22,578 nucleotides of DNA from Promethearchaeota archaeon (GTDB taxonomy: Archaea > Asgardarchaeota > Lokiarchaeia > Sigyniarchaeales > SOKP01), in NCBI GenBank assembly GCA_004524535.1, contig SDNY01000054.1, positions 1 to 22,578 of the forward strand, in the 5' to 3' direction. The notes under the pieces are model-generated. The model had not been told where the DNA came from. It saw only the letters and a program-made list of their open reading frames with translations, and did no database searches. Every line of letters begins with the position of its first letter. Position 1 is the first letter of the stretch. Made by a program: the position numbers and the translations under genes. Positions 1-22,578 of the stretch are shown piece after piece.

Positions 1-37
1 AAACAAAACAAAAAAAAACCAAAAAATGTGATATAAA

Positions 38-3186: not shown

Positions 3187-3188
3187 CT

Positions 3189-4191: not shown

Positions 4192-5052
4192 ATGGCAGAT
4201 GAAATAGAATCAACCTATATAGGAAAAAATGAAGGGTTAGTATTCATTGTACCAAAGGAACTTTTTGGAATGAAAATGGATAAAAAAATAGATCCTGAAA
4301 TAGCGAAAGAATTTAGTGGTTACATAAGGGATACTTTTAAGGGATTTCAGATTGCTGCTCAATCAAAAAAAGGCAATGAAAATAACACTAAAACGGAAAC
4401 ATCTCCTGAATTTTGGAAAGACTTTGAAAAAAAAGCAAAAGAATTAGGGGTTGATCTTATAGGGTATACTCCTGTTAATGAAAATTATATTTTTAAAGGC
4501 CTAAAAGTTTATGGGAAGAATGCTATTGTTCTTGGTCAAGAAATGATCTGGGAAAGAATTAAAAATGCCCCTAGTGTTGATTGCGGCGTAGAATCCTTTA
4601 GAGTATATAAAGAATTAGGAGAAAGCGTTATTGAATTAACCAATTACTTGAAAGAACAAGGATATAAAAGTGAAGCTCATCATCCTTTTGGCGGAAAACT
4701 ACTTTTTCCCTATCACGCAGTTGCTGCGGGTCTTGGGGCGGTGGGGATGAATGGTTTAGTAGTTACTCCCGAATTCGGTCCTCGGCAAAGATGGGGGATT
4801 ATTACCACCGATGCAGATGTTCCAGAGGTATCAGAAGAAAGACTTAAGGAAATGGAAACTCTTTGTAATAAATGTGAGGCTTGCATAAAGAATTGTAAGG
4901 GCAGCGCCACATTGGAAAACCCTACTGAAAAAGTAAAAGGTTCTGGAATTATTACTCGCATAGATCGCTCAAAATGTATTCATAGTCTGATCAATAATAA
5001 TTATTGTTCAGTTTGTTTAAAAGTATGTCCCTTAGGACATCCTAAAAAATAA
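4192..5052 (+). CDS. Short cytoplasmic reductive dehalogenase-like (RdhA core) protein
   Basis: AKELGVDLIGYT, NAIVLGQEM, AVAAGLGAVGMNGLVVTPEFGPRQR..IITTD, CNKCEACIKNC and CSVCLKVCP resemble RdhA cobalamin/Fe-S core motifs. An AGGTGA RBS lies upstream. Confidence 0.75.
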   Translation: MADEIESTYIGKNEGLVFIVPKELFGMKMDKKIDPEIAKEFSGYIRDTFKGFQIAAQSKKGNENNTKTETSPEFWKDFEKKAKELGVDLIGYTPVNENYIFKGLKVYGKNAIVLGQEMIWERIKNAPSVDCGVESFRVYKELGESVIELTNYLKEQGYKSEAHHPFGGKLLFPYHAVAAGLGAVGMNGLVVTPEFGPRQRWGIITTDADVPEVSEERLKEMETLCNKCEACIKNCKGSATLENPTEKVKGSGIITRIDRSKCIHSLINNNYCSVCLKVCPLGHPKK

Positions 5053-5086
5053 ACTAAAAAAAAAAAATTAGTAGAGAGGAATTAAA

Positions 5087-6604: not shown

Positions 6605-6688
6605 GCTTTTAATAATAAAAATCAACAGCCTTTCCGTAATATTCAAACCCAAATATGGAAACAAGCAATATAATTTTTTTTTTTTATA

Positions 6689-7606
6689 ATGAAAATTAAA
6701 GTAAACCGACTTAAAAATAATCCAATCATTTTTCCAGAGATGGATCAGAGTTTAGGGAATAATATTAATGGTCCTTCTCTAATATGCGTACCAAAATGGA
6801 TTAGTAATCCGCTTGGATTTTATTATCTTTATTTTGCTGCTCACAATGGCTCTTATATAAGATTGGCTTATGCAGATGATCTAGAAGGTCCATGGCATAT
6901 ATATAAAAGTGGTAGCCTTCAATTAGTAGAATCTTTCTTTCCTACAGAATTATCACCTCAGATATCAAAATATGCTAACAAATATTATAATAAACCACAC
7001 ATCGCATCTCCCGACGTACATATTCACGAAGAATCTCACGAAATTTATATGTATTACCATGGACTTCAGTTAAATTTGCTTCAGATGACTCGAGTTGCTC
7101 GTTCTAAAGATGGGATCTATTTTGTAGCAGAACCAGAAATCATTTCTCCTTCCTATCTCCGTGTTTTTAATTATGATGGATGGTATTACGGAATGTCCAT
7201 GCCAGGCATACTTTTTAGGTCTCCTAATGGAATTAATAATTTTGAAAGAGGGGCTTCTCTTTTTAACCATAAAATGCGTCATTCAGCTTTAAGAGTAGAT
7301 AAAGATATATTGCAAATATTCTGGACACAGGTGGGAGACTGCCCTGAAAGAATTTTACTTTCAATTGTCGATCTAACAGAGGACTGGTCGGACTGGAAAG
7401 CATCAACACCTATTGAGGTTTTATTTCCAGAAAAAGAATGGGAAGGAGGATATTTGCCTCCAGAATCATCAGTTCGAGGTCCAATAAATGAATCCGTTTG
7501 TCAATTACGCGACCCCGCTATTTATGAAGAGGAAGGAAGGATTTTTATGTTATATAGTATCGCAGGGGAATCTGGGATAGCTATCGCTGAGTTGAAGATC
7601 AATTAA
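6689..7606 (+). CDS. Five-bladed beta-propeller glycoside-hydrolase-like protein
   Basis: NNPII, NINGPS, YYLYFA, LAYADDLEGPW, ASPDV, MYYHG and RDPAIY..EGRIFMLYS blade motifs resemble GH43/GH32-like propellers. Confidence 0.65.
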   Translation: MKIKVNRLKNNPIIFPEMDQSLGNNINGPSLICVPKWISNPLGFYYLYFAAHNGSYIRLAYADDLEGPWHIYKSGSLQLVESFFPTELSPQISKYANKYYNKPHIASPDVHIHEESHEIYMYYHGLQLNLLQMTRVARSKDGIYFVAEPEIISPSYLRVFNYDGWYYGMSMPGILFRSPNGINNFERGASLFNHKMRHSALRVDKDILQIFWTQVGDCPERILLSIVDLTEDWSDWKASTPIEVLFPEKEWEGGYLPPESSVRGPINESVCQLRDPAIYEEEGRIFMLYSIAGESGIAIAELKIN

Positions 7607-7609
7607 GAT

Positions 7610-8410
7610 TTAAACTCCACTGTTAATGGTAAATCCTCCGTCGACCACTATTTTCGCTCCTGAGATATACCCACTTGCATCAGATGCTAGGAAAACAATG
7701 GTTCCTTTTATATCGTCGCTGCTTCCTAACCTTTTAAGAGGCACTAAGTTTACTAAAGGTTTTCCTACCCTCTCGTACGCTGGACCATTTTTGTCTTTGA
7801 GCCTTTCCATTAGGCCTTCTTCCGTATTGCCTGGAAGAATAGCGTTGACTCTGATATTATATTTGCCCCATTCAACTGCAAGCGATCTCGTGAGCCCAAC
7901 TATCCCAATTTTAGATGTGGCGTAAGCAGTCATTCCCATAGAAAAGCCAATTTGTCCTCCCATGCTTGAAAAGTTTATTATATTCCCATTTTTCTGCCTT
8001 ATCATTATCTTCCCAAATTCTCTGCAACACAAAAAGGTTCCCGTGAGATTAGTGTTAATAAGGTTGTTCCAACGCTTAATATCGTAGCTTTTCGAAGGGC
8101 CTAGATCGCCGAGTCCTGCGTTATTTACAAGAATATCGCATTTCCCGTAATAGTCCTTTATTTTTTTTGCCATCTGCTTGACTTCTGCTTCTTGCGTTAT
8201 GTCGCACTTAATCGCTATACAATCTTTTCCTTTTTTTTTCAACTTTTCCACGGCATCATCCAACTTTCCGTGAAAATCTCTACCACAAATGGCTACATCT
8301 GCTCCAGCTTCTACCAATCCTTCAGCAGAAAAATAACCTAATCCTCTTCCGCCTCCAGTTACCAAAGCGACTTTTTCATCTAGTTTAAATAAATCTGAAA
8401 CGTGAGTCAT
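7610..8410 (-). CDS. Classical SDR oxidoreductase (gluconate 5-dehydrogenase/FabG-like)
   Basis: TGGGRGLG, NNAG, catalytic S and YATSK, IRVNAILPG, VDGG. An AAGTGA RBS lies upstream. Confidence 0.92.
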   Translation of the reverse strand: MTHVSDLFKLDEKVALVTGGGRGLGYFSAEGLVEAGADVAICGRDFHGKLDDAVEKLKKKGKDCIAIKCDITQEAEVKQMAKKIKDYYGKCDILVNNAGLGDLGPSKSYDIKRWNNLINTNLTGTFLCCREFGKIMIRQKNGNIINFSSMGGQIGFSMGMTAYATSKIGIVGLTRSLAVEWGKYNIRVNAILPGNTEEGLMERLKDKNGPAYERVGKPLVNLVPLKRLGSSDDIKGTIVFLASDASGYISGAKIVVDGGFTINSGV

Positions 8411-8558
8411 TTGATCACTTTTAAATTAGTTTTAGATAAATATTGATGAGTATCAATTTAAATTTATCTTATTGATATTATAATGAACGAATTTAATAAA
8501 AAAAAAGAAAATTGATTAAGAATTATATTTAGAAAGATCTAAAAATTGCTAAAAAGAG

Positions 8559-9548
8559 ATGATTGATAAGATGAAAATTAAATTAGATACCAATGAAATG
8601 CCCAAACCCCCTCCAATTGAGGTTTTAGAACCAGTAAAAAAGAGTATAGATGAAATAAACCGTTATACGCCCCAAATTGAAGTCAATAAATTAGTTAAAT
8701 TAATAGCAAATTATTCAAAAGCACCTGAAAATTCAATAATTTTAAGTTCAGGCTCAGATATTTTAATTAAAGAATTAATTTTTCTTTTTTCAAGAGAAAG
8801 AGAAATTATCATCGCTGATCCTACCTTCTTTTTAATTTCTAATGCAGCTCAAAAAACATCATCTCCACTATTGAAAATTAGATTAAGAGAACCAGAATTC
8901 AACCTCTTAATAGACTCGTTTATCGATGAGATTAATAAGCCAACCTTGATCGTATTTGATAATCCAAATAATCCTACAGGAAGTCTGCTTTTAAATCAAA
9001 AAGATGTTAAAATGATTTTAGAAAATGAAAATGTGATTTTATTAATAGACGAGGCATATTTTGAATTTTCAAAAATATCTTTCGCTAATTTGATAAAGGA
9101 TTATCCAAATTTAGCTGTATCAAGAACTTTTAGTAAATCGTTTGCTTTAGCAGGATCAGGAATAGGATATTTAATCGCCGGGGAGATAATTCAAAAAAGA
9201 TTTGAAGGGCTTGATATAATGCTTCCATCTCCAAGCGTAATTGCTGCAATCCATGCCTTAGATAATATTGATTATATGATTAAATATATTGAAGAAATTG
9301 ACCAAGAAAAAAAGAGAATAATGAGTTTAGTATCAGATATGGATTTAATAGTTTACCCGAGTTATACAAATTTTTTTCTAATGAAATCAAAAATGCATGA
9401 TCTTGCAAGAACACTCGCAGAACATGATGTACTAGTCTCTGATGTATCAAATCATTATTCCTTAAGTTCGGAATTTATTCGAGTCACTATAGGAAAAAAA
9501 GAGGAAAATGATTATTTTATAAAAAACTTAAGAAACATTGTTTCTTAA
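8559..9548 (+). CDS. hisC: PLP-dependent aminotransferase, histidinol-phosphate aminotransferase (HisC/CobD) family
   Basis: LDTNEMP, NRYT, GSDILI, NPNNPTG, IDEAYFEF, SRTFSK (PLP lysine), TNFFL, FIRVTIG..EEND. Confidence 0.7.
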   Translation: MIDKMKIKLDTNEMPKPPPIEVLEPVKKSIDEINRYTPQIEVNKLVKLIANYSKAPENSIILSSGSDILIKELIFLFSREREIIIADPTFFLISNAAQKTSSPLLKIRLREPEFNLLIDSFIDEINKPTLIVFDNPNNPTGSLLLNQKDVKMILENENVILLIDEAYFEFSKISFANLIKDYPNLAVSRTFSKSFALAGSGIGYLIAGEIIQKRFEGLDIMLPSPSVIAAIHALDNIDYMIKYIEEIDQEKKRIMSLVSDMDLIVYPSYTNFFLMKSKMHDLARTLAEHDVLVSDVSNHYSLSSEFIRVTIGKKEENDYFIKNLRNIVS

Positions 9549-9626
9549 GAGAATAATAAAAATTTAAAAAAGAATATATAGCGTTAAACATTGAAAATTA
9601 TAAATTTTAATTAAAAATTAAAAATC

Positions 9627-10142
9627 ATGTCAGAATTTGTATTTAAAGTTATACTTATTGGACCGGGAGCTGTCGGTAAGACAAGTTTACTTCATAGATT
9701 CGTGCAGAATAAATTCTCTGAGAGATATGAACTGACTATTGGGGTAGATTTTTTAGCAAAAACTGTGGAATTGGATCAATGTGTTGCGAGGCTTACGATA
9801 TGGGATATCGGTGGCCAAGACCGATTTAAATTCATGCGTAATCGTTTTTACGATGGGGCAATGGGGGCTCTCTTAGTTTTTGACCTTACAAGAAGTCAAA
9901 CTTATAAAGAGATTAGAAAATGGCTTGAGGAATTTCGCCAATTTGCTGGAAATAATATTCCTTTTGTATTAATTGGAAATAAAGCCGACTTAGTTGAAGA
10001 TATTGGTGAATCTATAGAAAAAAGCGATGCAAAAAAATTTGCAGAAAACGAAAGAAGTATTTATATTGAAACCTCAGCAAAGACAGGGGAAAATGTTGAA
10101 GATGCATTTATTCAATTAGTTCGAAAAATGATTAATCCTTAA
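9627..10142 (+). CDS. Rab-like small GTPase (eukaryotic signature protein)
   Basis: G1 GPGAVGKT, TIGVDF, G3 WDIGGQ, G4 NKAD, G5 ETSAK. No C-terminal Cys motif. Confidence 0.93.
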   Translation: MSEFVFKVILIGPGAVGKTSLLHRFVQNKFSERYELTIGVDFLAKTVELDQCVARLTIWDIGGQDRFKFMRNRFYDGAMGALLVFDLTRSQTYKEIRKWLEEFRQFAGNNIPFVLIGNKADLVEDIGESIEKSDAKKFAENERSIYIETSAKTGENVEDAFIQLVRKMINP

Positions 10143-10272
10143 AAATTAATTGAATTCTTTTTTTTTCCATGACTTAACCAATAATTTCGCTAAAAATATT
10201 AAATTATAGTTAAGTTTTAAATTAATATTGAATAGAATAAATTAACAAAATTTCAATTTCAATAGATTAAAA

Positions 10273-12657
10273 TTGAAACGGACATCAAAAATAAAATTAT
10301 TATTATTAATATTGGGTATAATTTTCTTAACATTACCTAGTTATTATAATAATTTCAAAAGTGTTCAAATAGATCAAAAAAACGATTTGGATGTCAAATT
10401 AGAGCTTAATTTGAAAGCACCTAAGCCTTCTGATAGTTGGGATCTTACTAATATTACTATCGATGGAAGTGCTACTGGTGTCGATGCCCATAATTGGACA
10501 TGGGCAGAAAAACAGGTTTGGTGCTCGGGCTCAGGTACTGCATCTGATCCATATGTTATCGAGAATATTACTATCATCGATGGTAGCTTAGATAATGGTA
10601 TCCTTATTGGAAATTCTAGCGAGTATTTTAGGATTGAAAACTGTACGATAATTAATTCTGGTTTAGGGAGTTCAAATGCAGGAATTAAATTGATTAATGT
10701 TAACAACGGAACAATCATTAATAATAATTGTACCACTAACTATTTTGGAATATATATGGAAAATTGTACAAATAACACAATTTCAGGAAATTCAATAAAT
10801 AAAAATAGAGATGGTATTAACCTTTTAAAAAGCAATTTCAATAACATAACGGATAACAATATTACCAAGAATAATGATAACGGGATATATATAAACCAAT
10901 GCAACAATATTACCATATTTAAAAATAATGTAAGTGAAAATTTAGGCAATGGTATATATTTTATAAGAGGGATTAATAACACAATTTCAGAAAATAGCGT
11001 AGATAGAAATATTTTGCATGGTATATATATTGAAAGTAGTAATAAGACTAATATTTTAGATAACACCGCATTTGAGAATAATAATAATGGGATATATATA
11101 GATTTGAGTTATAATAACACTATTTTAGGAAACAATATGACACTATGTGGAATAATGATTACCGAAGCTTCAATTAAATTTATGATTTCAAATACTATGG
11201 ACAGTACAAACTTAGTGAATGAAAAACCTTTATATTATTATTTCAATCAAAAATATTTAAAATCTAATGATTTCGATAATGCTGGACAAGTTATATTAAT
11301 CAATTGTAACGATTCAATAATGATTGATTTAAATGTATCTCATGGCTCAGTTGGAATTTCGTTATTTCATTCCAATAATATTACACTAAAATTCATTACG
11401 TCCTCATCCAATAATTACAACGGAATATATATGTATAATGGGATAAATAATACAATTTGGTTATGCCATACAGAAAGAAATAGAAATTATGGGATATATT
11501 TAAAAGATGGTTATGAAAATAATGTTTCAAGTAATACTGCGAATTATAATAATAATGGCTTTTCTTTTGAAAATAATGATAATTTAGTAGTGTATAATAA
11601 TACCGCATATAAAAATAGTGAATATGGGATATATATTTTCAATTGTGGGGGATGCACTGCTTCTGAAAATATTGCAAACAGTAATTCTAATGGGATATAT
11701 ATTTTCAATTGTGGGGGATGCACTGCTTCTGAAAATATTGCAAACAGTAATTCTAATGGGATATATATTAAATATAGTGATTCAATTCAAATTTTGAGAA
11801 ATGTAGCCAACTCTAACAAAGATTATTATGGTCTATATTTATATGATTGTGATTCTTCTATAGTTTCTTTAAACCAAATTAATTCTAATAATTATAGTGG
11901 TTTAAAATTATTCTACTGTGATTTTAATACTATTACTGGAAATATTGCAACTTATAATATTTTTAAAGGGATATATCTAGGTTATTGTGGTAACTCCATA
12001 CTTTCAAATAATTTGGCAAATTCAAATGGAGATAATGGAATATATATCTCTGCGAGCGATGATAATACCATCGAGAGTAATAAGGCAAACGATAACGGCA
12101 ATAACGGAATCTATATATCAACTAGTGATGATAATACCCTCGAGGATAATGAAGCAAATGAGAACGGTAATAACGGAATCTTTTTATCCACTTGCGATGA
12201 TAATGAGATTGTAGATAACGAAGCAAATGAGAATGAAGATGATGGAATATATTTACGTAATAGCAATGATAATAAAATCAAAGATAACACTGTTAATGAT
12301 AATGATGAAAATGGGATACATTTATTTTTAAGCGATGATAACACCATAGAAAAAAATACAATAGAAGATAATGGAGAATATGGAATATTTTTGTATATAA
12401 GTGATAATAATAAAGTAAGAAAAAATACCTTAAAAGGCAATAAAGAATGTATTTACGAGGACATCTGCGAGGGCAATGTCATTGAAAATAATGACTGCGA
12501 CACAGATATAATAGTGATAATAACAGTTATCGTTGTCATTTCTATTGTTGTTGGAATAATTGGCGTTTTAATATTTTTATATAAAAGAGCTAAAAAGAAA
12601 CGAGGCTTAGAATCGGCCGCTAAAAGCCAAAAATCAGCAACTAAAACAGAAGAATAA
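10273..12657 (+). CDS. Membrane-anchored right-handed parallel beta-helix (NosD/PbH1 repeat) surface protein
   Basis: TTG start, N-terminal hydrophobic segment, GSGT.SDPYVIENITI cap, many GI(Y/F)L..S.NN.I..N repeats, and a C-terminal TM helix followed by KRAKKKR. Confidence 0.88.
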   Translation: MKRTSKIKLLLLILGIIFLTLPSYYNNFKSVQIDQKNDLDVKLELNLKAPKPSDSWDLTNITIDGSATGVDAHNWTWAEKQVWCSGSGTASDPYVIENITIIDGSLDNGILIGNSSEYFRIENCTIINSGLGSSNAGIKLINVNNGTIINNNCTTNYFGIYMENCTNNTISGNSINKNRDGINLLKSNFNNITDNNITKNNDNGIYINQCNNITIFKNNVSENLGNGIYFIRGINNTISENSVDRNILHGIYIESSNKTNILDNTAFENNNNGIYIDLSYNNTILGNNMTLCGIMITEASIKFMISNTMDSTNLVNEKPLYYYFNQKYLKSNDFDNAGQVILINCNDSIMIDLNVSHGSVGISLFHSNNITLKFITSSSNNYNGIYMYNGINNTIWLCHTERNRNYGIYLKDGYENNVSSNTANYNNNGFSFENNDNLVVYNNTAYKNSEYGIYIFNCGGCTASENIANSNSNGIYIFNCGGCTASENIANSNSNGIYIKYSDSIQILRNVANSNKDYYGLYLYDCDSSIVSLNQINSNNYSGLKLFYCDFNTITGNIATYNIFKGIYLGYCGNSILSNNLANSNGDNGIYISASDDNTIESNKANDNGNNGIYISTSDDNTLEDNEANENGNNGIFLSTCDDNEIVDNEANENEDDGIYLRNSNDNKIKDNTVNDNDENGIHLFLSDDNTIEKNTIEDNGEYGIFLYISDNNKVRKNTLKGNKECIYEDICEGNVIENNDCDTDIIVIITVIVVISIVVGIIGVLIFLYKRAKKKRGLESAAKSQKSATKTEE
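11624..11769. repeat. Perfect 66-bp intragenic tandem duplication (about 2.2 copies)
   Basis: Identical copies start at 11624 and 11690, with a partial copy at 11756. Encodes GIYIFNCGGCTASENIANSNSN twice. Confidence 0.95.
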
Positions 12658-12747
12658 TAAATCTCAAATTTTAACAAACTGAATAACTTCTATTTTTTTT
12701 TGTTTTATCTTATAATTTTAGAAAATTTAATTATTATTTAATTATTA

Positions 12748-13509
12748 TTAGACAAATCCCTTCTTTTGCTGATATTCTTTTTTCCTTATTTTTAACAATT
12801 TACAAGTTTCTGTTATTGCCGTATCAGAACATCCCGCGATAATTTTACTTTCTTTTTGGTTTAATTTATTCGTAAGATAAATAGCAACACCTATTTTAAC
12901 TGTAAATCTTCTAGGTTTATGTATTTTGTAAAGAAAACTTTCAATGTCTTTATAACATTGTAATGTATCGTCAAATTTAATCCTATTTTTCTTGGAATCC
13001 TCTAATTTATCATATATCTGTCTAAATCTAGTCTGCCCTATTTTACATGATTTCTCAATACAAGCATTTTTTGAATTAAGTTCTTTAATATTAACATCTA
13101 TATTACAAACATTGGAGATACCAAATAGTTTTATCGCTTTTTTATTAAACCGTATTCCTTGTATCTTTTTACTATCCATTTTAATATTTTCAATTTCGTT
13201 CATCAAATGATATATATAGAGCTTCCCCATAGTAACGGAATAAGATTTAAAGAAATGTAAAACACGGTCATAGAAAACCTTAGAACGAATGGTATATTCT
13301 CCAAACTCACAAAACTTCAGTAAAAAATATCTGAACAAAGCCTTTTTTAAGTTTATTATCCTTCCTCTCTTCCCTGTTTCATCATATTTTTTTTTGCATT
13401 CCTTACAATCAGTTGACAAACCATCTTTTTTACTTCTATTTCTAGTAAAAAAATCATTCGTTGCTGGAAATTCTAATTTACAATGACAACAAGTTTTTGT
13501 TTGGATCAT
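12748..13509 (-). CDS. Hypothetical DNA-binding protein: C4 Zn finger, winged-helix-like region, TFB-like C-terminal HTH
   Basis: Zn ribbon KTCCHCK..F....FF......KDGLSTDCKECKK; central FLLKFCEFGEY.IRSK.FY...IQGIRF; C-terminal IGVAIYL...NQKESKIIAGCSDTAI...CKLL. Confidence 0.6.
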   Translation of the reverse strand: MIQTKTCCHCKLEFPATNDFFTRNRSKKDGLSTDCKECKKKYDETGKRGRIINLKKALFRYFLLKFCEFGEYTIRSKVFYDRVLHFFKSYSVTMGKLYIYHLMNEIENIKMDSKKIQGIRFNKKAIKLFGISNVCNIDVNIKELNSKNACIEKSCKIGQTRFRQIYDKLEDSKKNRIKFDDTLQCYKDIESFLYKIHKPRRFTVKIGVAIYLTNKLNQKESKIIAGCSDTAITETCKLLKIRKKEYQQKKGFV

Positions 13510-13553
13510 TTTATCTTTAAAAGTATATTATATATTCGTGAAGTATTCTAATA

Positions 13554-14789
13554 TCAGAGTCTAATCAATTCTGAAAGGGATTTTAGAGATAATCCTGTCT
13601 CTCTATGAAATATGAATATATTTGATATGAAATTGCAATTCTTTATGTTTTTTACCTTGTAGGCCCAATCTTTACGAGATAACTCTTTATCATAGTATTT
13701 TAAATGAGTATAATTAAGAATTTCAGCATCTTCTTCAGGATTATCTAAATCGAAAGTAAGGTGATCACCAAACCGGATTAGGTTTGAATTAATGAAATCA
13801 GTAAATCTAGGATTTTTTTTATAAAATTTTTCAATGTCATACTGAATAGGTCTCTTAATTAATTTAAATGAATTGATAATTAATTCCCCAGTATCAATTT
13901 GTAATACTTCGCTCACATTTCGATCTTTAATAGGTATGTCATTAATATTTGCTGCCAGAAGAATAATTAAACCTAAAGTTAAACGAACATTTAACCCGAA
14001 ACGACGTTTTATTGAGGAATCCAATAATGAAAGAACTAATTTTCGAAAATCATCTGTTAATGTGTACAAACCGATTTCTTTAATCCTATCTAGAATTGAT
14101 TTACATTTATCTAAGTCAAATAGATTATCAAAATATTTACTTTCGAATTTTTCGTTCCAATATCTGATTAAAACATGGTCCTTATTAGACAAATTGAAAA
14201 TACGATTATTTTTATGATATTTTTTATTCAAAATTCTATTTGCTTGATAAAACGCTACGAAAGCAATAATTTTAGGGAAATTGCCCATTTCATTAAATTC
14301 CTCTATTAATTTTCTAGATTTTTTGAAGATTTCGGAACTTACAAAAGTGTATTCTTTCTCTTTATTTTTTAGTATCAATAATGCGTTTTCCTTAATTTTT
14401 CTGTTTGAGACCTCTTGTTCCTTTTGACTTTTAACCAGAATTGGTAATGCGTTTTCCTTAATTTTTCTTTTTGAGTCCTCTTGTTCTTGATTTTCAACCA
14501 GAAGCTCATTTGTATATTTAATATGAGCGTTTTCTAGATAATTATCAACATTTTTTGTAATTAATGAAAATTTATCCCCTTTTTTTCCGATATATTTCTT
14601 TTCTACCATACTTAAAACGATTTTATAAAAATCATCTGTATTTATGGTAGGTAATCCAAAATTTTGAAAGAAATTTAATATATCAATAATCGTGAATAAG
14701 TTATTATTAGTTTTTGGGAGAAATTGAAGAAATTCTTCTTTTCTATTTAAAAAATTAAAAATAATCTGAGTCAATCTATCATCATTCAA
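13554..14789 (-). CDS. Hypothetical protein: wHTH, degenerate TFB/TFIIB-like cyclin repeats, RAMA-like C-terminal domain
   Basis: TTG start with a GGGAGG RBS, 12 nt downstream of the integrase stop. Motif resemblances are given in the findings. Confidence 0.55.
   Translation of the reverse strand: MNDDRLTQIIFNFLNRKEEFLQFLPKTNNNLFTIIDILNFFQNFGLPTINTDDFYKIVLSMVEKKYIGKKGDKFSLITKNVDNYLENAHIKYTNELLVENQEQEDSKRKIKENALPILVKSQKEQEVSNRKIKENALLILKNKEKEYTFVSSEIFKKSRKLIEEFNEMGNFPKIIAFVAFYQANRILNKKYHKNNRIFNLSNKDHVLIRYWNEKFESKYFDNLFDLDKCKSILDRIKEIGLYTLTDDFRKLVLSLLDSSIKRRFGLNVRLTLGLIILLAANINDIPIKDRNVSEVLQIDTGELIINSFKLIKRPIQYDIEKFYKKNPRFTDFINSNLIRFGDHLTFDLDNPEEDAEILNYTHLKYYDKELSRKDWAYKVKNIKNCNFISNIFIFHRETGLSLKSLSELIRL
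14379..14503. repeat. Imperfect intragenic duplication with 66-bp period
   Basis: TAATGCGTTTTCCTTAATTTTTCT... starts at 14379 and at 14445. Protein: QEQEDSKRKIKENALPIL versus KEQEVSNRKIKENALLIL. Confidence 0.85.
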
Positions 14790-14801
14790 TTGTCCCTCCC
14801 T

Positions 14802-16490
14802 CTAATTCATATAAAACATATCATCGATTACAAAAAGAAAATTTATTTCTAATAATTTTTTAAGAAGAATAAATATATCTTTTTTAACTTTAGTGGGATT
14901 ATTTTTCAATATAATCTCATTTAATTCGAAAAACGAAAGCCCTTTACATTCCCTTAATGAAAATTTTTGTTTAAGGTGAAATATTTCTTCTTTCTTAATA
15001 TTGTTAATTTTTTTTTCTGAATTAAACGAAAAATATGAACCGAATCTTTGAATAAAGCCTTTCTGAATCATATTATAGATTAATTGAGTAATTTCATCTG
15101 AAGTAATGTGATAATTATTATCAAGAAAGAATTCTAGGATATCTATAAATGAAAAATAATCTTTTTCAATCTTATCTTCTAAATACTTTTTAAAATTTAA
15201 TTGAAAAATCTTATCAATTTCTAATTTTCTTTTGGATAAAATTTCAATTTTTTTTTGAGAAAATCCAATTTTAACTGAAGGTTCAATAAAGTCTATGAAT
15301 TTTTTTAAATTTAACTCAACACTTCTTAGATGTTGTGTATAAATAATGTATAAAGGATCTAAAGGTTTATGACCAGCAATATATCGTAAATAATCTTCCC
15401 CTAAATCTTTTCTAACTTGATCTGTTTCGGTTATAAAGTATTTTCTTAATAAATGTGCTCTAATAGTTTGATATGGTTTAACATGCAAATGCAGGTGCTT
15501 TATTTTTTCAAAAGATTCCTTTAAATTTTGATTAAACTTGGATCGTAGAAAATCAACTTGGTATTGGATTTCTGGAAAGTAGCAATCTGATCTTTTTAAA
15601 AGAAATCTTATTTTGTTTTTACATTTTTCAGGGACATAATAATTTAAAAGAAGCATTAATTCTTCAGATATAAAGATCTGATGAATCTGTGCGTTTTTTT
15701 TTTTCGTTTTTACTTCAGGTATATAATATCTTCCTTTACCATTATATGAAAAATATTGTAAATCGTCCCATTTAGCGACTAGACAGTTTATTGCGTCTGA
15801 AATTCTTAAACCGGTTTGTGCTAAAAAAAGAGCAATAATTTGATATATAGGAGGCAAGTTATCTAAAAGATCATATAACAATTCTTTCGTGATAATTACT
15901 TCATATTTGCTTGATTTGCCAACATCACTTCTATTATTTAGCCAAGACTCACGAATTAGCGATCTTAAATCAGAGCGTACAAATCCCCAATATTTTGAAA
16001 GATTTCCCTGATGGGATAACCTCCAATTATAATCAAGAATAACTTTACCCTTATTAAAGCCATGTGAAGACTTTGGTAGATAATCTTGATGTAGAAGGAT
16101 CCACTCATTTCGAGATTTTTCATCAGGATTCCCCATGTTTTGGTTAAAATCATTATACATAGATAAAAAAGTTAGAGAATCACATTTGCTTAGATAATCG
16201 AATATCTGAAGATCTCTTTTTTGAGAAAAGATATGTTGATAAAATGGATTGCTTTTCAAATATCTAAACCATTTCTTCGTCTCGTTTAGATACCTAGGGA
16301 CTTTTTTATAATAGACCTTTTCACTAGCAATGTTACCGATAACACTAATAACAAATTTGATATTCTTTTCATGATTCCACCAATCCCATTTTTTTAAATA
16401 CTCTTCATACCTATTTTTTTTCCCATTAGATAATCTATCCATAGATTTGTATTTACGTAATAAATCTCTTTCTAATTCATTTGTCTCCAT
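14802..16490 (-). CDS. Tyrosine recombinase/integrase with C-terminal winged-helix extension
   Basis: The catalytic set appears intact: QTGLRISD (R), KTKK (K), HLLR (HxxR), IAGH (H), YIIY (Y). Start placed at ATG 16490 (METNEL), 7 nt after the upstream stop; 562 aa. Confidence 0.88.
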   Translation of the reverse strand: METNELERDLLRKYKSMDRLSNGKKNRYEEYLKKWDWWNHEKNIKFVISVIGNIASEKVYYKKVPRYLNETKKWFRYLKSNPFYQHIFSQKRDLQIFDYLSKCDSLTFLSMYNDFNQNMGNPDEKSRNEWILLHQDYLPKSSHGFNKGKVILDYNWRLSHQGNLSKYWGFVRSDLRSLIRESWLNNRSDVGKSSKYEVIITKELLYDLLDNLPPIYQIIALFLAQTGLRISDAINCLVAKWDDLQYFSYNGKGRYYIPEVKTKKKNAQIHQIFISEELMLLLNYYVPEKCKNKIRFLLKRSDCYFPEIQYQVDFLRSKFNQNLKESFEKIKHLHLHVKPYQTIRAHLLRKYFITETDQVRKDLGEDYLRYIAGHKPLDPLYIIYTQHLRSVELNLKKFIDFIEPSVKIGFSQKKIEILSKRKLEIDKIFQLNFKKYLEDKIEKDYFSFIDILEFFLDNNYHITSDEITQLIYNMIQKGFIQRFGSYFSFNSEKKINNIKKEEIFHLKQKFSLRECKGLSFFELNEIILKNNPTKVKKDIFILLKKLLEINFLFVIDDMFYMN

Positions 16491-16497
16491 TTTAAAA

Positions 16498-18342
16498 TTA
16501 CCCACTCGGGAAAAAAATATCTTGAATCCGTTTTGCCATTTTTTTGGCCCTAATATCAAAAAATTCAGTAAAATAGATTATTTTTTTCTTCTTGATCGAA
16601 GAATTGTGAAATTTCTTCATTTCTTCTTCATAATTCCTTGGAAAGTCCCAAGCTTCGAAATAGCCAGATGCGATCGAAGATTCAATACCTTCAACACTTG
16701 TCAGTATATCTTCTAGCCAACCCCAAGCTTGTCGATTCCTTGTTAGCTTTCCTTTCGATTTATTACCGTGATCTATCAAGATATAATTAAATATTGAATT
16801 TGAATTAGGACGTGAACTTTCATAATTCTTCTTTAATAAATCCGAGGGAAAAATTTTAAGCCAAAATACAGGGGGTTTCTTTTCTAATTTGTTTTTATCT
16901 TTCATAAAAAGCCAATTTTTCATTTTAAACACTGTTGAATTAAAAACAAACTGTGAACTCAAGGCTAATTGATATACAAATGAAATGTCAGATTTGCGAG
17001 ATCTTAGAGCTAACAACTTTTTAGGTAGGGTATCTGTCCAGAATTTTTCATTTAACTCATTATTTATCTTCTTTGCAAGTAAATTATAGTCTCGAGATTC
17101 TCCATTAATTAATCTCAGATCCAACATAACATCAACTTCTCTTTTTTTAAAGCGTTGTGAAAGGATGTTATAGATAAAATATTTTCCAAGAAATTGATGA
17201 AATTCCTTATCTTCGTTTTCTTCTTCGCAAAATAAATAAATGCAATAACTTGAATAAATAACACTTTTTGATCTAAAGTCATTAATAATAAATTTATTTC
17301 GAAATTCCTTATCATCGGGTTCAAGTGGAAGAAGGTCTATTATTGATTTGTTCAGTATTTTTAAGAATTTTGAAAAATTACTTTTATTTGTTATAATCTT
17401 AATTGCCTTACTTATTTTCTCAATGTTTATTTCTAAGGGATTTGTACGAGACATACTTATTTCTCGTTTATTATAATTTCCTGGATAGATGAGGTGAATC
17501 GCTAAATTTAATATATCATGGATTTTAAAATAATTATTATTTAACTTCTGCTTGGTTGATTCACTAAATTTTTCAATTAATTGACGACTCATGGGATTAA
17601 AATTAGATATTACTGAATATAACAAATCTAAAATTGAGTATTGAACCCCATAATTTTTAAAAACCAATAAATCAAAAGCCACATTAATATCTTCCCCATC
17701 ATAAGTAGCAATTTTCAACTTTTTATTTACTAATCCAAATATTCTTTCAATTCTATTAGTAACTTTTTTATCATCTTCACGATCTAGCCCAGCAAGAATA
17801 TCATTAATCTTTTTTGTAAATTCTTCTTTGTAAATAGCATTATCTCCAGTCTCGTTAAGGGTTTCCTTCAAATTTATCCAAGTAATATCTAAATCTTTGA
17901 TCTCCTCTTTAAATAGAAAAATATCTTTTATGATATTATAATATAAGTTAATATTATGAAATTTCTCATCAATAGCTATCTCACCAGTGGCAAAAACTGC
18001 TGAGAGCGCTGAACACCTCTGTAAACCATCTATTAGGAAATTTATCCATTCGGGTATTTGCTTTGAAGTATTAAATATTGTTCGATATTGTTCGATATTT
18101 GGATTTTTATTGTGGAGATACCACATTGTGATATCTCCAATCGGTATACCTTTAAAGAGAGATATTATTAAATCCTTGACTTTTTTTTTATTCCATACAA
18201 TTTTTCGTTGGATTCGAGGTACAATAGCCTTATTTTTTTTAACATCCCTGATTACACTAGAGATGGCCATCTCGCTTTCCCTTAATTCAACGTCATATAA
18301 TTCGTAATTTTCCTCAATATTCAAATTTTTTTGAATGGTCAT
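16498..18342 (-). CDS. DUF262 (GmrSD/ParB-like) domain protein with degenerate C-terminal HNH (DUF1524-like)
   Basis: VPRIQRKIVW, LI.SLFKGIPIG...W, IDGLQR, and a C-terminal KIFP..LL...NSIFNYILI...N. Confidence 0.82.
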   Translation of the reverse strand: MTIQKNLNIEENYELYDVELRESEMAISSVIRDVKKNKAIVPRIQRKIVWNKKKVKDLIISLFKGIPIGDITMWYLHNKNPNIEQYRTIFNTSKQIPEWINFLIDGLQRCSALSAVFATGEIAIDEKFHNINLYYNIIKDIFLFKEEIKDLDITWINLKETLNETGDNAIYKEEFTKKINDILAGLDREDDKKVTNRIERIFGLVNKKLKIATYDGEDINVAFDLLVFKNYGVQYSILDLLYSVISNFNPMSRQLIEKFSESTKQKLNNNYFKIHDILNLAIHLIYPGNYNKREISMSRTNPLEINIEKISKAIKIITNKSNFSKFLKILNKSIIDLLPLEPDDKEFRNKFIINDFRSKSVIYSSYCIYLFCEEENEDKEFHQFLGKYFIYNILSQRFKKREVDVMLDLRLINGESRDYNLLAKKINNELNEKFWTDTLPKKLLALRSRKSDISFVYQLALSSQFVFNSTVFKMKNWLFMKDKNKLEKKPPVFWLKIFPSDLLKKNYESSRPNSNSIFNYILIDHGNKSKGKLTRNRQAWGWLEDILTSVEGIESSIASGYFEAWDFPRNYEEEMKKFHNSSIKKKKIIYFTEFFDIRAKKMAKRIQDIFFPSG

Positions 18343-18363
18343 TAGTATATGAAATCATTCAAG

Positions 18364-18378
18364 TTTATAAATTTTTTT
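18364..18378 (-). promoter_or_regulatory. Putative BRE/TATA promoter for a leaderless DUF262 operon transcript
   Basis: TTTATAAA (18364-18371) is centred about 26 nt upstream of ATG 18342 and is preceded on the minus strand by an A-run. The AT-rich background limits certainty. Confidence 0.4.
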
Positions 18379-18484
18379 ATGAGTCTATTTAAATGAAAAA
18401 ATAAAAAAAAGATTTTTAAATTTCAAACGAAAATGATCAAATTTAATACAAGTTGAATTTGCTTGTAATTATGTTTGTAAACTT

Positions 18485-18520
18485 AAAAAAAAAAAAAAAT
18501 CCTTGCGAACTAAAGTTCGC
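18485..18520 (-). terminator. Hairpin plus long T-tract terminator
   Basis: On the minus strand, GCGAAC-ttta-GTTCGC lies 2 nt after the stop at 18523, followed by AAGGA and a 15-T tract. Confidence 0.65.
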
Positions 18521-18522
18521 TT

Positions 18523-18765
18523 CTAATCACTAAAATTTTTTCTTTGTAAAACACTATCTAACTGCTCTGCAAGCTTTATTGAATGTTCTCCAAGCAATCC
18601 AATGTTCTGGACTTCATTCACGCGTTTTAATGAATTTCGAGCACGGCGAATGAGTTTTCGATCAGATATAGCGAAATCATATTTACTGCAAGAGCTAGTT
18701 TGCTTAAATAGTCTCCTACCATGGTCTGGCTCGAAAACCACGTTATCTCTCAATATTGCATACAT
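18523..18765 (-). CDS. Small basic hypothetical protein (80 aa)
   Basis: ATG 18765 is preceded by a GTGA RBS-like motif. The ORF overlaps the end of the upstream ORF and is followed by a terminator. Confidence 0.5.
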   Translation of the reverse strand: MYAILRDNVVFEPDHGRRLFKQTSSCSKYDFAISDRKLIRRARNSLKRVNEVQNIGLLGEHSIKLAEQLDSVLQRKNFSD

Positions 18766-19042
18766 AATCTTCACGATATTTTATTTGCTTAAACATTTCA
18801 GATTGATTTTGAGCATATATTGCTAATATTCTATCTTCTTCATAGACATCAATATTTTTGATAGATTGCTTTTCATATAAGGGAATCTTCCTTTCTCTAT
18901 AAAAAAACCAATTTAGAGCATCCTTATAGTTTTTTTGTTTAATATTTTTTGGTATAATCTCTTGCATAATTTCTTGATAAATCTTAGTATGATATCTGAA
19001 TTCTTGGTTAGTTTTTACTTCGAGTTCATAGTTAAAGCGCAA
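18743..19042 (-). CDS. Small hypothetical protein (99 aa)
   Basis: TTG start preceded by AAGTGA, as seen for the SDR and AOR genes. Confidence 0.5.
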   Translation of the reverse strand: MRFNYELEVKTNQEFRYHTKIYQEIMQEIIPKNIKQKNYKDALNWFFYRERKIPLYEKQSIKNIDVYEEDRILAIYAQNQSEMFKQIKYREDYVCNIER

Positions 19043-19292
19043 AGATCTTCACTTCTTTTTTATCTATTCTTTTATATCAATTATATCTTAAAGCTTTTTA
19101 AAAGAAAAAATATAGAGATTATATTATTCTTAAAGACCATTTAAAATAAACGGTTTTAAATATTTTTTATTTCTTTTTTTATTTTATTTAATATTTTTTT
19201 ATTATAAAGAATAGATCTTAACTCTTAATACCCCTATAAAATAATATCAATTTTTTATAGATTTTAGATAATTTTATTCTTTATCTTTTTAA

Positions 19293-19318
19293 TTGAATTC
19301 TTAAAAATAAGAATTCAA
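19293..19318. repeat. Perfect 11-bp inverted repeat with 4-nt spacer
   Basis: TTGAATTCTTA-aaaa-TAAGAATTCAA in the divergent intergenic region. Confidence 0.8.
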
Positions 19319-19411
19319 AAAATTATTGATTTTTTGATAAATATTTATAAATACTAAAATATAATTAGTTTTAAAAAAAAAAAATTAAATTTTTAATTAA
19401 ACTTTCTCTAA

Positions 19412-21637
19412 ATGGCGAATAATAATATATTTGACTCTGATGGGGAGGAAACGGTGTGCTACGATATTGGTCCTAGTGGTAGACCACGTAAAATTCATTG
19501 TGGAGGTCCATTTATTAAGGTAAATGCAAAAATTCCTCAATTAGATAAGATTTTAAGAATGTCGGAAACAGATGCAGAAAACGAGGAGTTAATAAAGGAT
19601 GATGCAGAAAAATATCAAAACAAGGAAGAAGTTGAAGAACATATAAAAATTCCATCGAGCCTTATGGTGAATAGCGAAATGGACTCACTTATTGTTAATT
19701 TTCCTAATTTTCGAGCGAGTGTAATGACCGAAATTAAGAAAATTACAAATTTAATTGAATGTACTGATAACCAAAAAAAATTAATTTTAATGAAATCTGA
19801 GGAAATACTAGATAGACATATCTTGGGAGCAAAAAAGGGTGAAGTTACTATACGTAAAAATATAAACCTAAAAGCAATAGCTTCTGCCATTATTTATACG
19901 GTTATTATTTCAAATGAAGATATGCCAGAAATTGGTTCAACCCAGATAAGTAATATAGCTGGGATTAGTAATGACCTCTCTAGAACTTATAACAGATACT
20001 TTAGACATTTATATCCACGGATAAAAGAGGGATTTCATGAGCCTTCTGGATTTGTAAGAATTAGAAATATAATTTCTCAATATATTTTTGATTTAATAAA
20101 GGATAAAGAGATTGATTCATTGAAAATCGCTATATTTATAATAGATAATATTTTAAAGAGTGAAAATCTTCCAAATCAATTAAAGCAAGAAGACCTAAAT
20201 ATGCTTCATGAATTAATAACTCTTGATCGAGAGAATCTCTTAAAATATTTAACTGATTTAGTTGAAGTAATAAGACAGTTAATAATATCAAGTAAAGTCT
20301 ATAAAAAGATTGAAGCTTATATGGAAATAAAGGGCATAGCTGATTTCTTATGGGAAAAAGGCATAAATTTTTTTAAGTCTCAAAAAGGTTTTTATCGGAT
20401 TGTTTTACAGATATTTGACTTTTTAAAAGAACAATATCCAGACACCTTTCCTAGTAAAATGTATTCGAAAGATTTTCCCACTCAGGATTATAAGAAAATT
20501 GTAAGCGGAAAATTAAAAATATATATGGTAAAAAATATTTACAACGGAATATATTTTAAAAACGGAAACGGTAAATGCCCCGACTGCATAAGAGAAGGAT
20601 TTATCATTAACACAGATATTTCACGATTAGAAGCTATAGAACTTCATCATTTTTCTGATGTTAAAGAATTAGATTTTTCAGCAAAAAAGATTTATGATAT
20701 TTTTACTAAAAATCAATCTGATCCGCATGTTTTAGAAAAGATAATTGCCTTAATGGAATCAGAAAATGTGAGACTTATATGCAGAAACCATCATCAATTA
20801 TTGCATGCCAAGAATTATAACACTTTTCAATATTTTATCAATTGGGAAAAATTATTATCATTTCCTGCTGAAATTATTTTTATATTAGCAAAAACATGTG
20901 TAAATAATTATCGTGAAACTAAGGCTTTATCTAAAAAACATAAAGAACAAATTGTATTGCGTCTCATTGGAGAGATTAAAAAAAAATACATTATAGAGTT
21001 AATTTATGGTCCATATTGTCATACTTGTGGAGAAATAAATACTATAAAGTTTTTACCCTCTTTCGCCTTTGCCCATCTAAATAGTGAAATGAAAACAATA
21101 AATGCTTCTCGCTTATATGATAAGGGTCTTACATGTATAGAGATTTTACGGATTTTAAAGAAAGAGAGGGGAGCCTATATTTGTGCCAATTGTCATACTG
21201 TTTTTGACTATAAAGACTTTAATCTTTTTAAGATTATTTATGATAATAATGTTGATTATAAAACAGCTCTTAATGATTATAAAAGAGTACAAGAAAAATT
21301 TACAATTATACAAAATATCGTAAATGCTAAAAATCCTCTGGATAAATCTATAAATATTTCAGAAGTTTTTGAATGGTATATTATAGCTATTTATAAAATG
21401 TTGGAAGCTAATTATGATGTAACTCCAAAAACATTAGGCGATTATATGAATATTCACCCAAATACAGTGCATGAATTTTTTAAAGATAAGGAAATTAGAA
21501 CTCGTGACTTCTTAGAGCAATATGTTCAAATAATTGATGGAATCCCCCCACACCCTACCCATTATTATTTAACAGATAAAGGATATGAATTAGTTAAATT
21601 AATTATTCATTTCAGAGATTATTATAGTATCCTTTAG
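19412..21637 (+). CDS. Multidomain protein: TFB-like cyclin repeat, two Zn-binding HNH-like domains, C-terminal DtxR/MarR-like wHTH
   Basis: KAIASAIIY...TQISNIAGIS; CPDC...LHH...ICRNHH..LH; CHTC...FAH...ICANCH; YIIAIYKM...TPKTLGDYMNIHPNTV...YYLTDKG. Confidence 0.65.
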   Translation: MANNNIFDSDGEETVCYDIGPSGRPRKIHCGGPFIKVNAKIPQLDKILRMSETDAENEELIKDDAEKYQNKEEVEEHIKIPSSLMVNSEMDSLIVNFPNFRASVMTEIKKITNLIECTDNQKKLILMKSEEILDRHILGAKKGEVTIRKNINLKAIASAIIYTVIISNEDMPEIGSTQISNIAGISNDLSRTYNRYFRHLYPRIKEGFHEPSGFVRIRNIISQYIFDLIKDKEIDSLKIAIFIIDNILKSENLPNQLKQEDLNMLHELITLDRENLLKYLTDLVEVIRQLIISSKVYKKIEAYMEIKGIADFLWEKGINFFKSQKGFYRIVLQIFDFLKEQYPDTFPSKMYSKDFPTQDYKKIVSGKLKIYMVKNIYNGIYFKNGNGKCPDCIREGFIINTDISRLEAIELHHFSDVKELDFSAKKIYDIFTKNQSDPHVLEKIIALMESENVRLICRNHHQLLHAKNYNTFQYFINWEKLLSFPAEIIFILAKTCVNNYRETKALSKKHKEQIVLRLIGEIKKKYIIELIYGPYCHTCGEINTIKFLPSFAFAHLNSEMKTINASRLYDKGLTCIEILRILKKERGAYICANCHTVFDYKDFNLFKIIYDNNVDYKTALNDYKRVQEKFTIIQNIVNAKNPLDKSINISEVFEWYIIAIYKMLEANYDVTPKTLGDYMNIHPNTVHEFFKDKEIRTRDFLEQYVQIIDGIPPHPTHYYLTDKGYELVKLIIHFRDYYSIL

Positions 21638-21772
21638 ACGGAATTTAACTTATTTGCTAAATGTTATTTCGATAATTAATAATCAGTTTAGGGTTTAGCG
21701 AATTAACAAGAAATTTAAAAAAAAGTGATTCTCTATATTTAATTAATTATTATAAATTATAAAAAAAGCATT

Positions 21773-21778
21773 AAGTGA
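21773..21778 (+). promoter_or_regulatory. Archaeal-type RBS (AAGTGA) for the AOR gene
   Basis: Lies 6 nt upstream of TTG 21785. The same motif precedes the SDR gene and ORF 19042. Confidence 0.5.
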
Positions 21779-21784
21779 TTAAAT

Positions 21785-22578
21785 TTGTCAAAAATTAAAG
21801 AAGTAGTAATACCAGACGATATACACGGTTATTCTCAGGTTAGATTAGATGTTGACTTAACGAGTGGAGAAATTAAAGAATCAACTCTATCCAATGAATT
21901 CTGTCGAGACTGGATTGGCGGCTACGGATTTTAGATTGTATTTAACAGTCTAACTGGAATTGCTGCTAAGGTTTTATGGGACGAATTAAAACCTGGTGTT
22001 GACCCATTAAGTCCGGACAATGTGTTAATCTATGCACAGGGTCCTTTTCCTACAACGATCTTACCAACAAGCTCTAAATATGGGTTATTTGCAAAATCTC
22101 CATTAACTGGAATGTTTGGGATGTCCATATCCTCAGGAAGTGTTGGTGCTATGGCTCGACGCGCCGGAATTAATATGGTTGTTTTTAAGGGTAAGGCTCC
22201 TGAACCCGTTTATCTTGTGGTTGATGATGATGACCGATATTTAGTACCTTGTAAAGATACATTATCGGGGAAAGGTTGCTGGGAAACAGAAGAAATAATA
22301 AGGGAGGAATTTCAAGATCAAAGACTTGCTGTATTAAGTATTGGTCCAGCAGGTGAGAGAATGTCCAAAATGGCTTGCATTACAAACGATAGAAATCGTC
22401 AAGCTGGAAGAACTGGAATGGGAGCTGTGATGGGTTCTAAAAACCTTAAAGCTATAGCTTTTAGAGGTACAAAAGGAACCAAAGTTGCACATCCAGTAGA
22501 ATTTTACAAAATTGCTAAGAAACTAATTAAAGTCGCTAATGGTCCTGCGACAGCAAAATACCGTGATCAAGGTACGCC
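21785..22578 (+). CDS. aor: Aldehyde:ferredoxin oxidoreductase (tungstopterin AOR family), N-terminal part, interrupted by a 30-nt insertion; runs off the window
   Basis: Manual translation: MSKIKEVVIPDDIHGYSQVRLDVDLTSGEIKE...WIGGYGF*IVFNSLTGI AAKVLWDELKPGVDPLSPDN...AKSPLTG...IGPAGE...AGRTGMGAVMGSKNLKAIA. The TAG at 21932-21934 is the only stop in the frame. Confidence 0.9.
21930..21959 (+). other. Candidate 30-nt bulge-helix-bulge/loop (tRNA-endonuclease-type) intron in the aor mRNA
   Basis: In-frame stop, 9-bp internal hairpin, 8-bp exon-exon stem and two offset 3-nt bulges. Excision gives GGA TTT GCT GCT AAG (GFAAK). Confidence 0.65.

Follow-up and report, generated by a model that had tools for sequence, protein, structure and literature searches.

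Background

The closest described counterparts of the locus reported here are archaeal mobile elements that encode their own basal transcription factors. As described in the sections of Krupovic et al. 2019 that deal with them (PMC6563490), thaumarchaeal integrative and conjugative elements (ICEs) all have a gene for a TFIIB homologue, in most cases immediately in front of one for a ParB-like protein, and possess VirB4/VirD4 conjugation genes. The relevant part of PMC13700489 reports TFB genes for viruses of the Sulfolobales and for one virus of Asgard archaea, JinchiV1, while the corresponding part of PMC11529989 assigns ParB-like proteins to aloposons and to the integrated elements of Atabeyarchaeia, the latter with tyrosine-type integrases. 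Here we analyze a 22,578-nt stretch of DNA from a Promethearchaeota archaeon, comprising the whole contig SDNY01000054.1 of assembly GCA_004524535.1 (the window; contig C144 of genome G000 in our numbering; genome size 3.66 Mb in 198 contigs, GC content 0.304). It contains an acquired island with genes for a DUF262 (GmrSD_N) protein, a tyrosine recombinase, and two proteins of 411 and 741 aa with predicted, highly diverged TFB-type cyclin folds. With a probability of roughly 0.55, we interpret the island as a composite of at least two independently mobile units, namely the core operon of an integrative element and a homing-endonuclease-like gene, accompanied by the relic of an IS110-family transposase and an orphan gene.

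Results and discussion

An acquired island at a variable site

The locus was compared with those of two genomes of the same genus, G167 and G172. The gene order aminotransferase-GTPase-NosD...AFOR is kept in both congeners, with the flanking proteins of G167 being 88% (aminotransferase) and 95% (AFOR) identical to their counterparts in the window, and the intervening segment (Table 1) is missing from both. The absence of the segment from this locus in both congeners marks it as an acquired island. Its GC content is 0.264, as compared to 0.325 for the left flank (window 1-12661). The nucleotide alignment on the left stops at 12661 (G167) or 12684 (G172), just past the NosD-like gene, and on the right it restarts at 21797 (G167) or 21701 (G172), ahead of the AFOR gene; a weak 21-nt match suggests that the left edge of the island might be placed near 12745. 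Both junctions are bridged by contigs of the probable source sample at an even depth of ~44-48. The original prediction, made from the letters and the open reading frames (ORFs), had described an integrase island with five ORFs; the empty-site comparison shows an integrase-bearing, strain-specific island, and the ORFs lie where they were placed, with gaps of 7, 12 and 44 nt that follow from their coordinates.

The gap is filled in both G167 and G172 by a gene encoding a 289-aa ferredoxin-like protein, whose single ortholog in the present genome is found at window positions 4192-5052. In G172 the gap (the NosD-AFOR intergenic spot) contains in addition a gene for a 1248-aa SNF2 helicase (locus L052, contig C8, 5810-9556). 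The presence of the ferredoxin-like gene and of the helicase gene at the same site therefore indicates a variable hotspot, where the island represents a replacement instead of a clean insertion. The island contains no copy of the empty-site sequence. A low-depth contig of the source sample (depth 9.4 versus ~44-48) matches window positions 12481-12665 with 18 differences, and the match breaks off precisely at the island's left edge (12665); the contig may derive from a co-resident strain that lacks the island.

A conserved three-gene operon with a putative promoter of its own

The genes for the DUF262 protein, the integrase and the 411-aa protein are found in the same order at three other loci: in a Promethearchaeota metagenome-assembled genome (L021), on a marine sediment metagenome contig (L055), and on an 8.8-kb contig binned as Patescibacteria (L022), which we suspect to be misbinned and whose genes are 75-88% identical to those of L055. 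The amino acid identity to the window copies is 52-65% for the DUF262 protein, 72-75% for the integrase and 42-62% for the 411-aa protein (its copy in L022 is partial), so that the integrase is the best-conserved gene of the trio. The nucleotide similarity to L021 spans exactly window positions 13554-18406, i.e. the three genes and ~60 nt with a conserved TATA-like block; this promoter-like block upstream of the DUF262 gene is common to the window, L021 and L055, with unrelated sequence further upstream. The surroundings differ from locus to locus: L021 contains small uncharacterized ORFs and a gene for a 1333-aa AAA_21/AAA_15 ATPase (10245-14246), located between host-like genes, and L022 contains a gene for a 552-aa HerA/FtsK-like ATPase (1535-3193). 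Relatives of the 253-aa and 741-aa genes, which complete the five ORFs of the island, were found at none of the three loci. The trio recurs as a block with its own promoter and differing neighbors, and the island is not a single five-gene module; the expectation that the gene order would be found in other genomes holds for the trio, but not for the 253-aa and 741-aa genes.

The integrase is present in 3 of the 399 genomes of the phylum that were surveyed and in none of 8 congeners. A distant locus in another genome (G139) retains the DUF262-integrase pair, and the 411-aa gene was not found there. Scans with Pfam, NCBIfam and PHROG profiles revealed no VirB4/VirD4-type conjugation ATPases among the island proteins, and NCBIfam reported no match for any of them.

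The 614-aa product of the first gene was correctly predicted to be a DUF262 protein: it matches Pfam GmrSD_N with an E-value of 2.2e-9 (38.1 bits, cut-off 33.2 bits), and all 5 members of its family exceed the cut-off. Three aligned DUF262 proteins exhibit a DGLQR motif, which corresponds to the DGQQR motif of GmrSD and BrxU. The C-terminal DUF1524 nuclease domain (GmrSD_C) was detected in 0 of 5 DUF262 proteins at E<=1. This lack of a recognizable nuclease domain argues for a putative ParB-like DNA-loading or partition-type NTPase, not a restriction enzyme.

The second gene (a TTG extension would move its start to 16559) was described as a tyrosine recombinase in the original prediction, and it probably encodes a very divergent one. 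PHROG phrog_1 ("integrase") matches the 562-aa protein with an E-value of 1.7e-11, and Pfam Phage_integrase (PF00589) matches it with an E-value of 8.2e-5 and 22.9 bits, below the 27.1-bit cut-off. The protein comprises a conserved N-terminal region, a catalytic core (residues ~215-387) and a C-terminal winged-helix-like module. Residues R229, H346, R349, H374 and Y384 are invariant in 3/3 integrase sequences. A profile search of PDB sequences returned no match for the integrase, and hhalign did not align its catalytic core with that of the XerA-like protein of the same genome. Residues 440-494 of the integrase align with residues 26-81 at the N-terminus of the 411-aa protein (hhalign P-value 2.7e-4, 29% identity), which points to a winged-helix-like module common to both.

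Predicted TFB-like cyclin folds in the 411-aa and 741-aa proteins

No island protein matches Pfam TFIIB (PF00382) at E<=1, and a six-frame scan of the genome with this profile yielded 19 matches in ~10 loci, none on the island contig. Apart from the island, the genome contains ~10 ordinary TFB genes (contigs C174, C22, C183, C162, C98, C36, C60, C30, C12 and C70) and three TBP genes (C148, C138 and C47), which amounts to a large expansion of basal factors. The analysis of predicted structures supports the presence of a TFB/TFIIB-type cyclin fold in two island proteins, with both repeats in the 411-aa protein and the first repeat in the 741-aa protein. The cyclin repeat had originally been proposed for three proteins; for the 253-aa protein it found no support either in comparisons with the TFBs of the genome (hhalign P-value 0.06 over 26 columns) or among structural neighbors (no cyclin neighbors in the ESM Atlas).

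The AlphaFold2 (AF2) model of the 411-aa protein was built from 13 sequences (pLDDT 75.7). Foldseek reported the TFB of Pyrococcus woesei as the top match for residues ~120-316 (1d3u_B, E-value 3.4e-4; 1ais_B, E-value 7.9e-4; 206 columns, 17% identity), and the model was aligned with both repeats of P. woesei TFB and human TFIIB over 165-178 aa (VIA Z-scores 9.2-10.3). In a Foldseek-independent search of 48,161 representative chains, the best matches for this region were all of the cyclin fold, with TFIIB in first place, and the top match in BFVD was the TFB of an archaeal rod-shaped virus (Saccharolobus rod-shaped virus SSRV1). Residues 1-103 are modeled as a PadR-like winged helix (Z-score 8.6). 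Cysteines are missing from the first ~228 residues, so that the protein has no zinc ribbon. The family is rare: 5 relatives were found in a set of 5.8 billion clustered proteins, and profile searches gave 8 matches among 1.84 billion representatives and none among PDB sequences.

A RAMA domain, which the original prediction had mentioned, is a candidate for the C-terminus of the 411-aa protein. The window protein has no match to Pfam RAMA (PF18755), 1 of the 13 family members matches it with an E-value of 0.084, and this region of the AF2 model is poor (pLDDT about 42-76). The ESM Atlas model of residues 320-411 has its nearest structural neighbors among RAMA-bearing clusters (TM 0.66-0.80 over 80-86 aa), which include GmrSD_N+RAMA fusion proteins. 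We take the RAMA-like assignment as a lead and not as proof.

In the 741-aa protein (AF2 model with pLDDT 78.9; residues 1-96 modeled as disordered), residues 95-206 superimpose on the first cyclin repeat of TFB/TFIIB with VIA Z-scores of 12.0-12.7 and a root-mean-square deviation (rmsd) of about 2 Å over 94-101 aa (1ais_B: Z-score 12.0, rmsd 1.9 Å, 94 aa). The TFIIB family occupied the top 28 positions in one structure search and the top five in a second one, 1-2 Z-score units above cyclins. Residues 647-741 are predicted to form a DtxR/MarR-type winged helix (Z-score about 9), and a DtxR-type winged helix was the sole match of the family in a profile search of PDB sequences. Two HNH-like modules precede it, whose residues C389, C392, H412, H413, C457, H460 and H461, as well as C536, C539, H555, C591, N593, C594 and H595, are invariant in 13/13 sequences; residues 494-605 match the HNH family phrog_2255 (2.1e-4), with no match of the protein to a Pfam HNH family, and the matches of the structure searches were taken up by other domains. 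The prediction that TFB-type folds are fused to different DNA-acting modules is supported for these two proteins (winged helix, RAMA-like domain, HNH-like modules).

The 741-aa family moves on its own

A survey in which two candidates were scored per genome found the 741-aa family in 51 of the 399 genomes, with 49 of the 133 genomes of one taxonomic family and 3 of the 8 congeners being positive and neither G167 nor G172 containing a copy. Many copies are fragments or contain internal stops. Further copies in the present genome (contigs C36, C98 and C127) are located among housekeeping genes with no integrase nearby. The C36 copy forms a 2,444-bp insert between GTPase and helicase genes that are 73 nt apart in G167. 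The insert is bordered on each side by a match to 132 bp of the G167 empty site, corresponding to the 3' end of the helicase gene; the match that completes the gene is diverged, and the outer one is nearly identical to G167. Such a filled/empty site with a duplicated flank is the pattern expected of a mobile gene arriving with its own flank, and it fits homing or site-specific insertion. The family is patchy, multicopy, moving on its own and confined to essentially one taxonomic family. Contig C127 also encodes a 1711-aa protein (L019, 1836-6971) that resembles the cyclin-containing region of the 741-aa protein (residues 83-338; E-value 1.4e-24, 37% identity), with no domain assigned outside the common region.

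Passengers and genomic neighborhood

The orphan 253-aa protein has no homologue among 5.8 billion proteins. Its residues 2-50 match PHROG families at about 1e-5, a profile search of PDB sequences gave one chance-level match, a feature search of the ESM Atlas yielded nothing usable, and its structural neighbors are phage HNH/endonuclease VII or D5_N proteins with TM <= 0.34. The IS110 relic, located between the trio and the 741-aa gene, was identified by its 40% identity to residues 410-498 of a 501-aa protein encoded on contig C114, which contains the DEDD_Tnp_IS110 and Transposase_20 domains. On the same contig (L053, 506-5790), genes for an ISL3-like transposase, an IS110 transposase and a group II intron reverse transcriptase are clustered.

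Table 1. Features of the island, in coordinates of the window
Feature	Position	Strand	Basis and remarks
Strain-specific island	12662..21796	.	No alignment to G167/G172 between the flanks; GC 0.264
Orphan 253-aa gene	12748..13509	-	N-terminal zinc ribbon as on phage HNH/endonuclease VII proteins
411-aa protein, third operon gene	13554..14789	-	Predicted PadR-like winged helix (1-103), TFB-like double cyclin box (~120-316), RAMA-like region (~320-411)
Divergent tyrosine recombinase, 562 aa from ATG, second operon gene	14802..16490	-	Phage_integrase, phrog_1
DUF262/GmrSD_N (ParB-like) protein, 614 aa, first operon gene	16498..18342	-	Pfam GmrSD_N
Promoter-like block	18364..18403	-	TATA-like TTTAAATA and T-rich upstream part, ~40 nt before the DUF262 start codon
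IS110-family transposase relic	18538..18795	-	C-terminal end alone left; tblastn with C114 protein
741-aa protein	19412..21637	+	Predicted disordered N-terminus, TFB cyclin repeat (95-206), helical region, two HNH-like modules, winged helix (647-741)

Two other peculiarities of the window lie outside the island. Relative to both congeners, the AFOR gene exhibits a 30-nt insertion (window ~21930-21960) containing an in-frame TAG ~45 codons into the gene, and a replaced ATG start with a possible TTG instead; a pseudogene, a variant of this strain or a mistake in the assembly could account for this. The segment 3189-8571 comprises five genes (two ferredoxin-like genes, a sulfatase, an uncharacterized gene and an SDR gene) without counterparts at that position in G167, one of which is the relocated ortholog of the 289-aa gene adjacent to AFOR in the relatives. 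An actin gene elsewhere in the genome and a gelsolin gene in a related locus support the placement among the Asgard archaea.

A probable composite of independently mobile units

Starting from the observed absence of the island in relatives, the conservation of the trio as a block, the folds and the solo-insertion polymorphism of a 741-aa paralog, we infer the biochemical roles of the island proteins as follows. The 4.85-kb operon with its own promoter would be the core that a rare family of integrative elements, variable in cargo, uses for integration and maintenance, and the recombinase would integrate the element. Lacking both a zinc ribbon and a B-reader, the 411-aa protein should be unable to recruit RNA polymerase in the manner of TFB; this lack of polymerase-recruiting parts suggests that it is an element-specific DNA- or TBP-binding regulator or a recombination accessory factor instead of a transcription initiation factor, and it may act alongside the integrase via the winged-helix module common to both. 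The 741-aa gene would constitute the second unit, a free-standing homing-endonuclease-like mobile gene whose TFB cyclin repeat and DtxR-like winged helix would provide DNA recognition to the two HNH modules. The IS110 relic and the orphan 253-aa gene would be further passengers.

Several observations weigh against this interpretation. The PF00589 score is below the cut-off in 4 of 5 members of the integrase family (22.9, 22.6, 26.2 and 13.5 bits), the L021 integrase has no PF00589 match, and the catalytic roles of R229, H346, R349, H374 and Y384 (R..HxxR..H..Y) were assigned by eye. The integrase has no relative in IMG/VR. As to the element itself, its insertion was not clean (the ferredoxin-like gene was replaced), the search for flanking direct repeats or an att site revealed only short AT-rich repeat families at chance level, and the window contains no tRNA gene. 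The contigs of the source sample contain no trustworthy excision or circle junction: all joints had sides of 20-26 letters. As to the folds, comparisons with the genome's own TFBs gave weak sequence support (hhalign P-value 1.9e-4 for the 741-aa family and 0.12 for the 411-aa family), the VIA Z-scores of 9-12.7 are under ~13, a range in which, according to a warning of the tool, helical folds may match by chance, and cyclins score within 1 Z-score unit of TFIIB against the 411-aa model. Finally, the PADLOC matches of the DUF262 protein and the RAMA-like domain fit a role in defense equally well.

Defense is a serious rival, although we regard it as unlikely. The DUF262 and 411-aa proteins would form a split type IV restriction-like system (akin to BrxU or GmrSD-RAMA) that senses modified foreign DNA, with the recombinase moving or regulating the island. 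PADLOC matched the 614-aa protein to HEC-05 (1.2e-12) and PDC-M55C (2.9e-11), and HEC-05 is nearly identical to BrxU according to the pertinent part of a preprint (10.1101/2024.01.29.577857). The GmrSD_N+RAMA fusions among the structural neighbors of the 411-aa C-terminus point in the same direction, as does the AAA_21/AAA_15 ATPase of L021, which is of a type common in defense systems. However, PADLOC matches are confined to the DUF262 protein (none for the 411-aa protein or the integrase), the DUF1524/HNH nuclease domain was detected in none of the five DUF262 proteins at E<=1, and the gene inside the operon that is best conserved is the integrase.

A different role may also be considered for the 741-aa family, which could be a domesticated nuclease-type regulator or a defense nuclease instead of a selfish homing-type gene, with its patchiness being due to loss. 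The conservation of full-length members, with the metal-binding and histidine residues invariant in 13/13, and the DtxR-like winged helix typical of regulators agree with this possibility, which we nonetheless find improbable: the closest relative has an uninterrupted empty site where the C36 copy has a duplicated flank, many copies are fragmented or contain stops, and several divergent copies coexist in one genome.

We find it rather improbable that the TFB-derived modules of both proteins are promoter-homing devices that would dock on promoters bound by TBP or at the B recognition element (BRE) and guide the recombinase (411-aa protein) or the HNH nuclease (741-aa family) to promoter regions. 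This would be comparable to the integrase of Ty3, which uses TFIIIB. On its right side the island borders directly on the AFOR promoter; in L021 it sits between divergently oriented genes.

The original prediction of a single module of all five genes coupling the sensing of DNA modification to recombination or transcription, which drew on their closeness, the tight operon gaps and the two TFB-like folds within 9 kb, has next to no chance of being correct and is largely refuted because the genes do not co-occur: the 253-aa and 741-aa genes are absent from 3/3 other trio loci, the 741-aa paralogs are found alone among housekeeping genes and insert on their own, and the IS110 relic parts the trio from the 741-aa gene.

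Comparison with known systems

If the composite interpretation is correct, one Asgard genome contains two unrelated mobile units, each of which has a TFB cut down to the cyclin core and fused to DNA-acting modules. Should these cores still bind TBP or the BRE, they would be a tractable example of a basal transcription factor put to new use, either to select targets or to take over transcription, and they would broaden the view of how the TFB family has expanded in Asgard archaea. TFB-like proteins of this kind are invisible to Pfam, and similar cases have thus probably been overlooked in annotation.

A literature search turned up neither a published TFB-cyclin/HNH fusion nor a published DUF262-integrase-TFB/RAMA operon, which does not prove that there is none. 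The original statement that no named system has this layout is nevertheless too strong, considering the TFIIB homologues beside ParB-like genes in the thaumarchaeal ICEs (PMC6563490, in the sections cited above). With these ICEs, as described there, the island shares the nature of an archaeal integrated element in which TFB-type and ParB-like proteins are encoded in one operon, together with an integrase. It differs from them in the lack of VirB4/VirD4, in its ParB-like partner, which is a DUF262/GmrSD_N protein, in the position of the integrase between the two genes, and in its TFB-like protein, which is undetectable by Pfam, has no zinc ribbon and is predicted to be fused to a winged helix and a RAMA-like domain.

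Like the viruses SSRV1 and JinchiV1 (the latter as reported in the part of PMC13700489 cited), the island is a mobile element with a TFB-fold protein of its own that presumably acts on the transcription of the host; unlike them, it has no viral hallmark genes and no IMG/VR match, and its domain fusions differ. It is an Asgard integrated element, as are the aloposons and other elements treated in the relevant parts of PMC8813620 and PMC11529989, but it lacks the giant Otus/Ephialtes genes, a tRNA target and a MinD/ParA gene. Membership among the aloposons was considered and rejected since the island has neither giant genes nor a tRNA target.

The DUF262 protein resembles the type IV restriction proteins GmrSD, BrxU and SspE in its N-terminal DUF262 domain, DGxQR-type motif and linker region, and differs from them in that the DUF1524 nuclease was not detected in it and the RAMA-like domain resides on a separate protein. 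The 741-aa gene behaves like the free-standing HNH homing endonucleases of phages and introns, being a solo gene with presence/absence at a fixed site, a flank copy, a patchy multicopy distribution and decay into pseudogenes. Unlike in those enzymes, recognition in this predicted nuclease would be provided by a TFB cyclin repeat and a DtxR-like winged helix, and there are two tandem HNH-like modules.

In summary, TFB genes beside ParB-like genes in archaeal integrated elements have already been described. The novelty of the locus resides in a DUF262 partner in which no nuclease domain was detected (0 of 5 at E<=1), in an integrase placed between the DUF262 and TFB-like genes, and, as judged from the predicted structures, in a TFB reduced to a cyclin core invisible to Pfam and fused in one protein to a winged helix and a RAMA-like domain and in the other to two HNH modules and a winged helix.

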